NCBI RefSeq assembly: GCF_001677475.2 | Contig: NZ_CP015229.1 | Strand: one strand, 5' to 3' | Length of the DNA: 64,000 bases | Origin: Escherichia coli | GTDB lineage: Bacteria; Pseudomonadota; Gammaproteobacteria; Enterobacterales; Enterobacteriaceae | Part shown: positions 27,001 to 30,000 of the stretch, one piece after another | How the letters are laid out: every line of letters begins with the position of its first letter | Position numbering within the stretch: position 1 is the first letter of the stretch | Position numbers: made by a program

Positions 27001-30000
27001 TCAACGGTTCTATCTCAAACCAAGCAGCCCTTCTATGCAATGCTCGCAATCTACACGCTTTCCTTGGGGTTGGTAAACGCTTTGCATCGTGGATAACAGA
27101 ACGTATTGCTGAATATGGTTTCGTTGAAAATCAGGACTATATGATTGCTTCCCAAATTCGGGAAGCAAAAGGTAGAGGCGGTCACAACCGCAAGGAATAC
27201 CACCTCACCCTCGACACAGCCAAAGAGCTTGCGATGGTTGAACGTAACGAAAAAGGCCGCCAGATACGCCGCTACTTCATCGAGTGCGAAAAGAAACTTC
27301 GCAACATTCAGCCAGTACAAACTGAGCAGCAATTCACAGCAGAAGACATCATCCTGCTCTGCTACGTTCAACTCTGGATGGAAAAAGCACAACAACTCAG
27401 TAAGCAGCTATACCCCGTCATGAGAGAACTGAATTCTGATTACTACGGGAAACTGTTTGATCTGGCCTACGAGACTCGTCATATAACCAACCGGACTCGC
27501 GACACATTGCTCCGCGAAGCAGCAAAACTTGATCCCGCCAACTATATGGTGCATAGGGCCAGAAGTATGCTGGCGCAACTAAGAGCAAGACAATTTGAAT
27601 TCTGAAACCAAAGGAGCTTCGGCTCCTTTTTTCATGGTGTGCCGGGCATGCTCAGCAGCTCGGGGGTGAAAGTCCCCTGTCCAGCCTGATGGTGGCGAAG
27701 GACTAGTGAAGCGCAAGGGTGTCGTCGTGAGGCGGGATCTGAAGGAAGCGTGGAGCAAAACCATGACCTGACGAACAGAAATCCGATATGAGGCCTACCC
27801 GGCTGGCGGAGCAAGCCATTGATTGCAAAGGCCATAACCATCAAGAGCCGGGGTGGTAGATTGGGCAGGTGTGTGGTGAAAGCGGCTGAGCTTACCCCGG
27901 GAGGCCTGTCCGGCGTTCTGTATTCAGAACTGAGCGTACCGTAAGGTGCGCTGACCGGCGGACAGGAGTCAGCAGAGGGCATAGCAGGACAGGCGCGTCT
28001 GAAGGCCCGAACGGTAATGAGTGACGAGTATCAGCGGAGGTTCTGAACGGTCATGCAGCAGAAAACGCATCGCGACCCTGATGCAGGAAGACGGGGTGAA
28101 GCCCCGGACGCCGGTTCTCAGGGGGCTGAAACCGTGCAGGCACCGACGACCAGAGAAAGTCCATCGTCAACAGCGTGGCTGATGGAAGCCATCTGCGAAC
28201 CAGTCAACCTCAGGCATGCCCTGAAAAGAGTGAAGGCCAATAAAGGTGCGGCGGGAGCCGACGGCATGAGCGTAAGCGAACTGCCGGAGCACCTGAAACG
28301 CCACTGGCCGGAACTGAAAGCGCAACTGCTGTCCGGCAGCTACCGCCCATCCCCTGTAAGAAGAGTGACTATCCCGAAGCCCGGCGGCGGCGAACGCCTG
28401 TTGGGCATCCCGACGGTGGTGGACCGCTTTATCCAGCAGGCGATGATGCAGGTGTTGCAGGCACAGTGGGATGCGACGTTCAGCGACAGCAGCTACGGGT
28501 TCCGGCCCGGACGCTCGGCGCATCAGGCAGTGAAGCAGGCTCAGAGATACATCGAGTCGGGCTACAGCTGGGTGGTTGACCTCGATCTGGAAAAGTTCTT
28601 CGATCGGGTGAATCACGATGTACTGATGAGCCGGATAGCGAAACGAGTATCGGATAAACGGGTGCTGTCGCTTATCCGCAGGTACCTGAATGCAGGTGTG
28701 ATGGAAGCGGGTCTGGTAATGCCGGTGACAGAAGGGACGCCGCAGGGCGGCCCACTGTCGCCACTGTTATCGAATCTGCTGCTGGATGACTTCGATAAGG
28801 AACTTGAGAAACGCGGCCTGAAGTTCGCCCGCTACGCAGACGACTGCAATGTGTATGTGAAGAGTGAACGGGCAGGCAATCGTGTGATGGCGGGGCTGAC
28901 GCACTGGCTGAACCGGAAACTGAAGCTGAAGGTCAACGCGAAGAAGAGCGCGGTAGCGCATCCGGAGACGCGTAAGTTCCTGGGTTACAGCTTCAGGAGG
29001 GGCAGAAAGGTGTGGTGTGTGGTGTCGCCGGAATCGGTGAAGCGGTTCAAAACCCGGATAAGAGAACTGACGGGGCGTAACACGGGCAGAAGCCTGGAGC
29101 AGCTTATCGAACCGTTAAAGCGATATCTGACGGGATGGAAAAGCTACTATAGACTGAACCAGTGGCAAACGCTGATGAGAGATCTGAACAGGTGGATAAG
29201 GCGAAGGTTGCGAAGTGTCCTGTGGAAACAGTGGAAAACGGGCAGCAAGCGCTTCAGGGAGTTGCCATAAGCAATGGCGGATAAGCTGTAGTCCGGCACT
29301 GAGCATAGCACTTCCCAATCGCCTGTTCGTCAGACTGGGCCTACCGGAGTTATAGGCAGGCGACGATAAACATAACCGAACCGCCGTATACGGACCCGTA
29401 TGTACGGTGGTGTGGGAGGAGGCTGATCGTGAGATCAGCCCCTATCCCGATCCCGAATGTCAGCGCAATCTCTCCTTTCAAAAATACAAATCCGATAGCA
29501 ATGCCCCATCAGCTACTCATTGTTGCGAGTGTGGAGCTCCAATAGATGAACGGCGACGCCAGGCTGTTCGTAGATGCCGAACTTGTACCAGCTGCCAACA
29601 GGATATTGAGCTGAAGCTCTGCTGAACTATGGAGACTTTTTCCTGCATGCTGCGCCGTCCTGCGCTTCTCTGGACTAAAAACATCAATCACCCGGCCCCG
29701 ACGACTAGTCTAAAAACTAGATTAAGACCATCACTAACTTATGTGATACCAGTTGTCTGAATATTCATGTGGCCAGTGTATCGATCTACTCGTAGGTCTA
29801 GAAAAACAGGAAAAAATCTCGTAGACTATGTTATTAGTCCATCCAATGTAAAACTTGCTGTTTCGATAGGTTCAGTTGTGGATGCTAAAAACCTATGAGA
29901 TACATTTTTAACTTGAGTATTCATTAACTCAAATAACTTTAAGAGCGCATATGGAAAATGTTTTTTATTTTAACCAGAAAGACTTCACAGGTAGAATACT

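Follow-up and report, generated by a model that had tools for sequence, protein, structure and literature searches.

The zinc-finger reading frame at positions 29452-29625 of the window, by which we mean the whole 64,000-nt stretch of the Escherichia coli contig NZ_CP015229.1 that was analysed, is very probably a non-functional traR pseudogene of the family represented by 933W L0141, VT2-Sakai H0159 and lambda orf73. Members of the TraR/lambda Orf73 family are small RNA polymerase secondary-channel regulators. The decay is ordinary and its biological importance is small: an accessory gene has decayed in a single clonal lineage of an E. coli prophage, beside a retroelement of a well-understood kind.

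Setting of the zinc-finger frame at the prophage end

The Escherichia chromosome is represented in the window by ynfE/ynfF (to 26436) and a truncated ynfG (from 26447), followed by a prophage whose late region is 97-98% identical to that of short-tailed Stx-converting phages of the 933W/Sp5 type. Reading inward from the prophage end, the order is an sRNA-Xcc1-like motif, ant, a terminator hairpin, a group II intron and the zinc-finger frame; further inward come the end remnant of an IS3-family element, then an AT-rich islet that contains an ORF of 167 codons, and, on the opposite strand, an LPD38/LPD5 gene of 2806 codons. The features discussed below are as follows.

26847-26935, prophage end: sRNA-Xcc1-like motif
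26976-27605, plus strand: ant (AntA/P22_AR_C antirepressor; Pfam AntA E 2.4e-26, PHROG 377 E 1.8e-90)
27610-27633, plus strand: ant intrinsic-terminator hairpin, AAAGGAGC-TTCG-GCTCCTTT and T run, read directly from the sequence
27634-27636, plus strand: ATG that ends the 5' exon; IBS1 core, in frame with the remnant once spliced
27637-29451, plus strand: group IIC intron (5' GTGTG, 3' ...GAT), from Rfam and the boundaries shared by its copies
27817-27822, plus strand: EBS1 loop CATTGA (CAU pairs with exon AUG), from covariation
28053-29270, plus strand: intron-encoded RT/maturase, 405 aa (450 aa in intact copies), from Pfam RVT_1 and GIIM
29379-29451, plus strand: intron domains V and VI (CGC for the AGC triad; bulged A present), from the Rfam RF00029 alignment
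29452-29625, plus strand: traR remnant, equivalent to approximately codons 14-65 of an intact traR and ending in K-L-C and a stop that derive from the IS
29454-29455, plus strand: approximate junction of a 49-bp deletion, from the MAFFT alignment; placement ambiguous within CC[C/T]GAA
29521-29595, plus strand: C4 zinc finger, C-x2-C...17...C-x2-C (C-C-E-C ... C-T-S-C), Pfam PF01258 over residues 22-54
29614-29777, minus strand: IS3-family left-end remnant (ISEc36/ISEc27-like; inverted repeat and first orfA codons)

The last 237 nt of ant are 100% identical to NCCP15648, a locus without the intron. The terminator hairpin behind ant folds at -16.3 kcal/mol (z = -2.4) and is identical in three intron-less loci (L001-L003). 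It was not listed by a pattern scan for terminators, because an A/T extension of the stem consumes the T run, and the folding backs the hairpin.

Identity of the zinc-finger frame

The frame translates as PECQRNLSFQKYKSDSNAPSATHCCECGAPIDERRRQAVRRCRTCTSCQQDIELKLC followed by a stop codon. A sequence-only reading had seen here a CxxC...CxxC zinc-finger C terminus that could be read in frame, and this is borne out by a match of the C4 finger to Pfam PF01258 (zf-dskA_traR) at 28.8 bits (E 1.3e-6; cut-off 24.9). The remnant also matches PHROG 54 ('DksA-like zinc-finger protein', E 9.7e-15), and at the DNA level it shares 88-89% identity with TraR/DksA genes annotated in E. coli and Stx phages (E 6e-80); judged by sequence comparison, the frame is real, with a similarity far above chance. 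Its finger has the CxxC-(17)-CxxC spacing of the TraR/DksA family, with C-C-E-C ... C-T-S-C aligning to CEAC...CVEC of TraR. The remnant does not have the N-terminal helix with DxxDxA (D3, D6, A8) of a functional TraR/Orf73-type protein, nor a ribosome-binding site and start codon of its own, nor the length of approximately 68-75 aa. It also carries an Arg in place of the Gly that is common to all other homologues and to TraR/YbiI (AVRGCR to AVRRCR). The dN/dS ratio of the remnant against intact alleles is 0.13-0.25 over 53 codons, a value that both a young pseudogene (a recent deletion in a long-diverged allele) and a selected ORF could give; a ratio this low implies that most of the 12% divergence arose under constraint, with the inactivation recent by comparison.

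At its 3' end the traR sequence meets the IS3-family remnant at 29613/29614, and it is the latter that supplies K-L-C and the stop codon with which the traR frame ends. This altered 3' end did not figure in the sequence-only reading. The remnant is 85-86% identical over 164 nt to an ISEc36-type left end, with a terminal inverted repeat and the start of orfA, but only approximately 165 nt are left and there is no complete element with a transposase. A locus in E. coli ST866 (L003; WP_032268500.1, 68 aa) shares with the window the insertion in ynfG, the traR::IS3-remnant fusion (...DIELKLC and stop) and the downstream AT-rich module; it differs from the window in having kept the ribosome-binding site, the ATG and codons 1-13, in lacking the intron, and in carrying an additional IS630 within the IS3 remnant. 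Since the same fusion is present there in an otherwise intact gene, the 3' truncation is older and shared.

A group IIC intron behind the ant terminator

The intron at 27637-29451 is 98% identical to plasmid copies and gives three Rfam matches above the gathering scores (group-II-D1D4-3, 135 bits; D1D4-1, 49.6 bits; Intron_gpII, 42.6 bits). The hallmarks of the ribozyme are all present, namely GTGTG at 27637, domain V, the bulged A of domain VI and the 3' end ...GAU. The CGC found in domain V instead of AGC is a group IIC trait. Three copies of the intron in unrelated contexts all end in ...CCTATCCCGAT and differ from the next base on, and the Rfam match to domains V/VI stops at 29451, which makes 29452 the first base of the 3' exon and agrees with the earlier placement of the zinc-finger remnant immediately downstream of the intron.

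The intron-encoded protein (IEP) contains RVT_1 and GIIM domains only, with no endonuclease domain detected by Pfam, and its best solved relatives are the GsI-IIC RT (6ar1; E 4e-140, full length) and the E. rectale IIC RT (7uim). Relative to the copy in L005, the intron has a 50-bp deletion at approximately 29255 by which the IEP loses its C-terminal 45 or so aa; over aa 1-404 it is 96% identical to the full-length form and it keeps the RT and maturase (X) domains. With the ribozyme motifs intact and both of these domains kept, the window copy may still splice.

At four independent sites (the window, L005, L006/L016 and L015) the intron is inserted directly after a hairpin and T run, and insertion after terminator hairpins is described as the hallmark of class C introns (PMC1702495, PMC3522654). 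Pairing of EBS1 with the 5' exon is seen by covariation: copies with the EBS1 loop AAAGAA follow 5' exons ending in TTCTTT at two independent sites (perfect pairing), and copies with the loop CATTGA follow TTCATG (the window) or TTTATG (a pAA-type plasmid), with five of the six pairs formed and a CAU:AUG core. Another candidate for EBS1, CCATGACC (27760-27767), was ruled out, since the Rfam model places it in a paired stem and, unlike 27817-27822, it shows no covariation. From the RT class, the Rfam hits and the insertion behind hairpins at four sites we assign the intron to group IIC.

Intact relatives and the 49-bp deletion

Related prophages of the 933W type that are inserted in ynfG carry intact TraR/DksA genes at the equivalent position behind ant (L001 and L002, 73 codons each; L003, 68 codons). 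There the ant terminator is identical, the CATG is shared, and directly behind it comes CCTGAAGGAAAGGAAA-ATG-GCAGATATC..., which opens the TraR/DksA gene. In a four-way MAFFT alignment with them, the window has a single gap of 49 nt, which takes out the ribosome-binding site (ggaaaggaaa), the ATG and codons 1-13. The breakpoint can thus be located, as the sequence-only reading had proposed to do by alignment to intact relatives, at approximately 29454/29455; the left edge of the gap lies 2-6 nt past the 3' splice site of the intron and the exon-terminal CATG, and its placement is ambiguous in a short GAA repeat, as a microhomology deletion would give. That reading had taken the frame for the relic of a phage TraR-like gene whose 5' part was lost by rearrangement. 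The 5' part is indeed lost, and the intact genes in L001-L003 agree with such a relic, but the loss is a small local deletion of 49 bp beside the intron. No copy of the lost 5' part was found elsewhere in the window in a search allowing up to three mismatches, and it has therefore not been translocated.

What was lost includes the working tip of the protein. The intact relatives (933W L0141, VT2-Sakai H0159 and lambda Orf73; 68-73 aa) begin with MADIIDNA, that is, with DxxDxA, which from residue 2 aligns with SDEADEA of F TraR as found in its RNA polymerase complexes (5w1s_M, 6n57_M). The PHROG 54 profile is covered at positions 1-67 by the intact protein and at 17-67 by the remnant, which misses positions 1-16 including DxxDxA, and the working tip is therefore absent. 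Among phage records, 235 of 236 cover the homologue over at least 80% of its length. In TraR the N-terminal helix (residues 2-27) descends the secondary channel and comes as close as 4.3 Å to the catalytic Mg (PMC6970531), and D3 and D6 of DxxDxA are needed for rRNA promoter inhibition by both TraR and lambda Orf73 (PMC9239242).

The proximity of the deletion to the intron raises the possibility that it was caused by the insertion itself, through imprecise retrohoming or repair of the 3' junction. A left edge 2-6 nt from the 3' splice site would fit such an origin, as would the fact that deletion and intron are always seen together, but we consider it doubtful. Other copies of the intron have clean junctions, the IIC target consists of a hairpin, IBS1 and one downstream base so that either order of events works, and the GAA microhomology is enough for a slippage deletion; moreover, no more than 20 nt separate the terminator from the ribosome-binding site and start, which makes the proximity plausible by chance. 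Two other origins were rejected. The internal deletion of the intron is not the exon deletion, the former being 50 bp at approximately 29255 and the latter 49 bp at approximately 29454, and recombination between intron copies 49 bp apart is contradicted by the right breakpoint (...GAAGAA|TTG), which has no hairpin, T run or IBS1 match.

An IMG/VR contig and several draft assemblies of E. coli carry precisely this arrangement, without a mismatch over 2.8 kb, which on sequence identity points to a single clonal lineage; one carrier is assembly GCA_019141465.1. Searches with the joined exons, with the intron and its flanks and with the 3' exon found no intron-less or undeleted copy of the allele in 5,426 complete E. 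coli genomes. The exact 24-mer had no match in genome_contigs, the 24-mer and the 27-mer (GAGTGTGGAGCTCCAATAGATGAACGG) matched only the identical locus L007 in viral_contigs, and the 27-mer had no match in metagenome_contigs; among 5.8 billion protein sequences the best intact match was 85% identical. An allele with the intron alone or the deletion alone was thus found in none of these genome, contig and protein collections, and the exact ancestral 5' sequence and any order of events are read from comparators that are approximately 88% identical.

The exon-terminal ATG and the spliced frame

The 5' exon ends in ...TTTTTTCATG (in longer form ...GGAGCTTCGGCTCCTTTTTTCATG), and joining 27636 to 29452 gives ATG-CCC-GAA-TGT-CAG..., an in-frame ORF of 58 codons whose predicted peptide begins MPECQRNLSFQK. 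The sequence-only reading had found no start codon outside the intron and no upstream exon in frame; the former is correct for the 3' exon, which has no in-frame ATG, GTG or TTG ahead of the finger, but not for the 5' exon with its terminal ATG, and the latter is overturned by the junction 27636|29452. It had also named a spliced transcript that creates a complete ORF as evidence against a relic. The joined exons do contain an ATG-initiated ORF in the sequence, but on that same sequence splicing yields no complete TraR, the DxxDxA region being missing.

The position of this ATG is explained by the intron, since IBS1 has to pair with CAU of EBS1, which is the target requirement of this intron subfamily. 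In the intron-less relatives the CATG is also present, there out of frame with traR, and it is the deletion of 49 nt (49 = 3 x 16 + 1) that shifts it into the traR frame, a one-in-three event. The L005 copy on a plasmid is likewise preceded by ...TTTTTTATG, where the exon-terminal ATG opens a frame of 8 codons only. With AUG as the core of IBS1, this IIC subfamily always leaves an ATG just upstream of whatever sequence follows, a built-in source of spurious and occasionally real spliced ORFs that bears on how such junctions are to be read.

The 58-codon spliced ORF, a dN/dS without obvious decay, and the intact ribozyme motifs and RT/X domains are observations that count against a pseudogene. 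They lend themselves to a reading in which read-through of the terminator and subsequent splicing give a 58-aa, tip-less TraR that binds the rim of the secondary channel, for example as a competitor of DksA, the Gre factors or TraR. We regard this as very unlikely, even though the DksA tip aspartates, which are essential for function, are dispensable for binding to RNA polymerase (PMC9239242), and the low dN/dS, the ATG at the exon junction and the retained RT and X domains and ribozyme motifs all count in its favour. The ATG is accounted for by the IBS1-EBS1 pairing and pre-exists out of frame in the intact loci, and its match to the traR frame is a one-in-three chance. No Shine-Dalgarno sequence is suitably spaced: the sole candidate (AAGGAG, 27611-27616) lies 17 nt from the ATG and within the terminator stem. 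The ORF as a whole is situated behind the ant terminator. The conserved Gly has become Arg, and the arrangement occurs in a single clonal lineage. We would therefore place little belief in any functional product from the 58-codon ORF, and a tip-less 58-aa TraR made from spliced read-through RNA only, as a blocker of the secondary channel or an antagonist of DksA, strikes us as hardly probable; if it were true, its expression would report on splicing of the intron.

In public annotation the frame appears as P0001, a 'TraR/DksA C4-type zinc finger protein' of 63 aa (MSPYPDPECQ...) that is present in 74 blocks of the contig collection. Translation of this protein, or of a 72-aa ORF with a GTG start, from the unspliced RNA would draw on that annotation and on a frame that is open back to GTG 29407, but we think it extremely improbable that either is a real gene. 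The start of the mechanical ORF (GTG 29407) and the annotated start (29434, a non-canonical ATC) both lie inside intron domains V/VI, the GGAGG at approximately 29417-29424 precedes a GTG of another frame, and no homologue has anything that corresponds to the residues ahead of PECQ. In annotation, the 63-aa protein should be flagged as a pseudogene and a feature added for the intron. That the intron merely splits an otherwise complete traR, so that splicing restores the full-length protein, can be dismissed despite the exact abutment of intron and frame and the in-frame joining of the exons, because the sequence holds no N-terminal codons: the 5' exon is the 3' end of ant plus the terminator, with an ATG at most as traR coding sequence, the 13 N-terminal codons occur nowhere in the window, and the spliced product spans only positions 17-67 of PHROG 54.

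A proposed history of the locus

For the traR pseudogene that we favour, we propose the following course of events. The ancestral order would have been that of 933W-type ynfG prophages, with ant, the terminator, a ribosome-binding site and a traR of 68-73 codons, and the extreme 3' end of traR had been replaced by the IS3-family remnant before the 5' loss. The 49-bp deletion then removed the ribosome-binding site, the ATG and codons 1-13, which include the DxxDxA tip of the N-terminal helix, probably as a separate event at the GAA microhomology that could have come before or after the intron. The intron probably reached the ant terminator by terminator-directed retrohoming, this terminator being its likely target and traR neither targeted nor interrupted, and the in-frame ATG would be a by-product of the target preference of the intron combined with the frame coincidence. 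Little or no protein is probably made, and any product is likely to be inactive as a TraR-type regulator.

Comparison with known systems

Among known relatives, the gene order is matched by that around 933W L0141 and VT2-Sakai H0159 (73-aa TraR homologues), which share with the window the succession of attachment site, sRNA-Xcc1-like motif, ant and traR, and approximately 88% DNA identity to the remnant; in both phages, however, the genes are intact and no intron separates ant from traR. The remnant is homologous to lambda Orf73 and F TraR in its globular zinc-finger domain and in a portion of the N-helix, and the intact alleles of this locus are approximately 68% identical to the 73-aa lambda gene and align end-to-end with F TraR. 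The lambda gene compared here is a 73-aa gene of the exo-xis region upstream of ea22, which, judging by length and position, we take for orf73, the record giving no name. Unlike these proteins, the remnant has no ribosome-binding site, no start codon of its own and no residues 1-13 with DxxDxA, and its C-terminal helix is shortened by the IS-derived end; unlike lambda orf73, it lies at the prophage end beside ant and not in the exo-xis region.

The intron resembles the bacterial group IIC introns B.h.I1, GsI-IIC and that of E. rectale in its position after a terminator hairpin and T run, as described for such introns (PMC1702495), and in a short IBS1, a single-base IBS3, an RT/maturase without endonuclease and the CGC of domain V; it differs from them in the 50-bp deletion that truncates the C terminus of the IEP. 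A likeness can also be drawn to Clostridium tetani's alternatively splicing group II intron (PMC4024640), for which splicing is described as fusing upstream and downstream frames. The fusions described there are conserved and were shown in vivo, whereas the 'upstream exon' in the window amounts to only an ATG chosen by the EBS1 of the intron.

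Annotation of the traR remnant and state of the intron

The zinc-finger frame of the decayed phage traR (29452-29625) is covered in public records by P0001, a 63-aa 'TraR/DksA C4-type zinc finger protein' (window 29434-29625) that turned up in 74 contig-collection blocks and takes its start from a non-canonical ATC within intron domain VI. P0001 is an annotation artefact laid over a pseudogene, and in several of its records the intron reverse transcriptase was left uncalled as a gene. That protein, the IEP (28053-29270), carries a 50-bp deletion at ~29255 compared with 98%-identical plasmid copies encoding 450 aa, and the resulting frameshift leaves 405 aa, with the C-terminal ~45 residues beyond the maturase domain gone. 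The intron copy in the window is therefore probably immobile. Comparison of the EBS1 loop (window 27817-27822) with the other copies of related introns (L006, L015 and L016) showed that two 86%-related intron subfamilies differ in this loop, one having CATTGA and the other AAAGAA. Each loop fits its own 5' exon end, CATTGA with xxCATG/xxTATG and AAAGAA with TTCTTT, which provides a clean natural case of EBS1-IBS1 covariation behind terminator hairpins.

Prophage end and the region upstream of ant

The prophage insertion interrupts ynfG (4Fe-4S subunit; window 26447-26560) after ~28 codons, and several related prophages (L001-L003) occupy the same site. The following elements lie between this end and ant, or at the matching position in related loci:

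26603-26642, immediately within the prophage boundary: ATGCAAAGCTTTGT repeated twice in tandem
26847-26935, + strand: match to Rfam sRNA-Xcc1 (RF02221), 69 bits against a gathering score of 53
L014 1695-1783 and L003 3156-3244: further copies of the sRNA-Xcc1 motif

Each repeat copy contains the palindrome CAAAGCTTTG, and the tandem repeats might serve as protein-binding sites near the attachment site. They also showed up as a long 'terminator-like' stem, and were scored as mir-19, a spurious match. The sRNA-Xcc1 match lies ~40 nt upstream of ant; VT2-Sakai and E. coli ST866 carry the motif at the same position, and it is therefore a conserved structured element of the attachment site-to-ant interval in 933W-type prophages.

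Region downstream of the traR remnant

29614-29777, - strand: IS3-family left-end remnant (ISEc36/ISEc27-like), ~165 nt
29780-30560: AT-rich islet, 30-35% GC
29951-30454, + strand: 167-codon ORF within the islet
30580-39000, - strand: polyvalent protein gene, 2806 codons

The 3' end of traR is fused to the IS3-family remnant; the ST866 copy of this remnant is additionally interrupted by an IS630 element. The islet ORF, kept in ST866 at ~87% identity and called as a 146-aa variant in some assemblies, had no match in PHROG and a weak, sub-threshold match to Peptidase_C58 (YopT-like; E 2e-4). Precomputed Pfam hits of near-identical loci place LPD5, LPD1, MuF_C and LPD38 domains in the polyvalent protein, and a gene of this kind is typical of this phage group.
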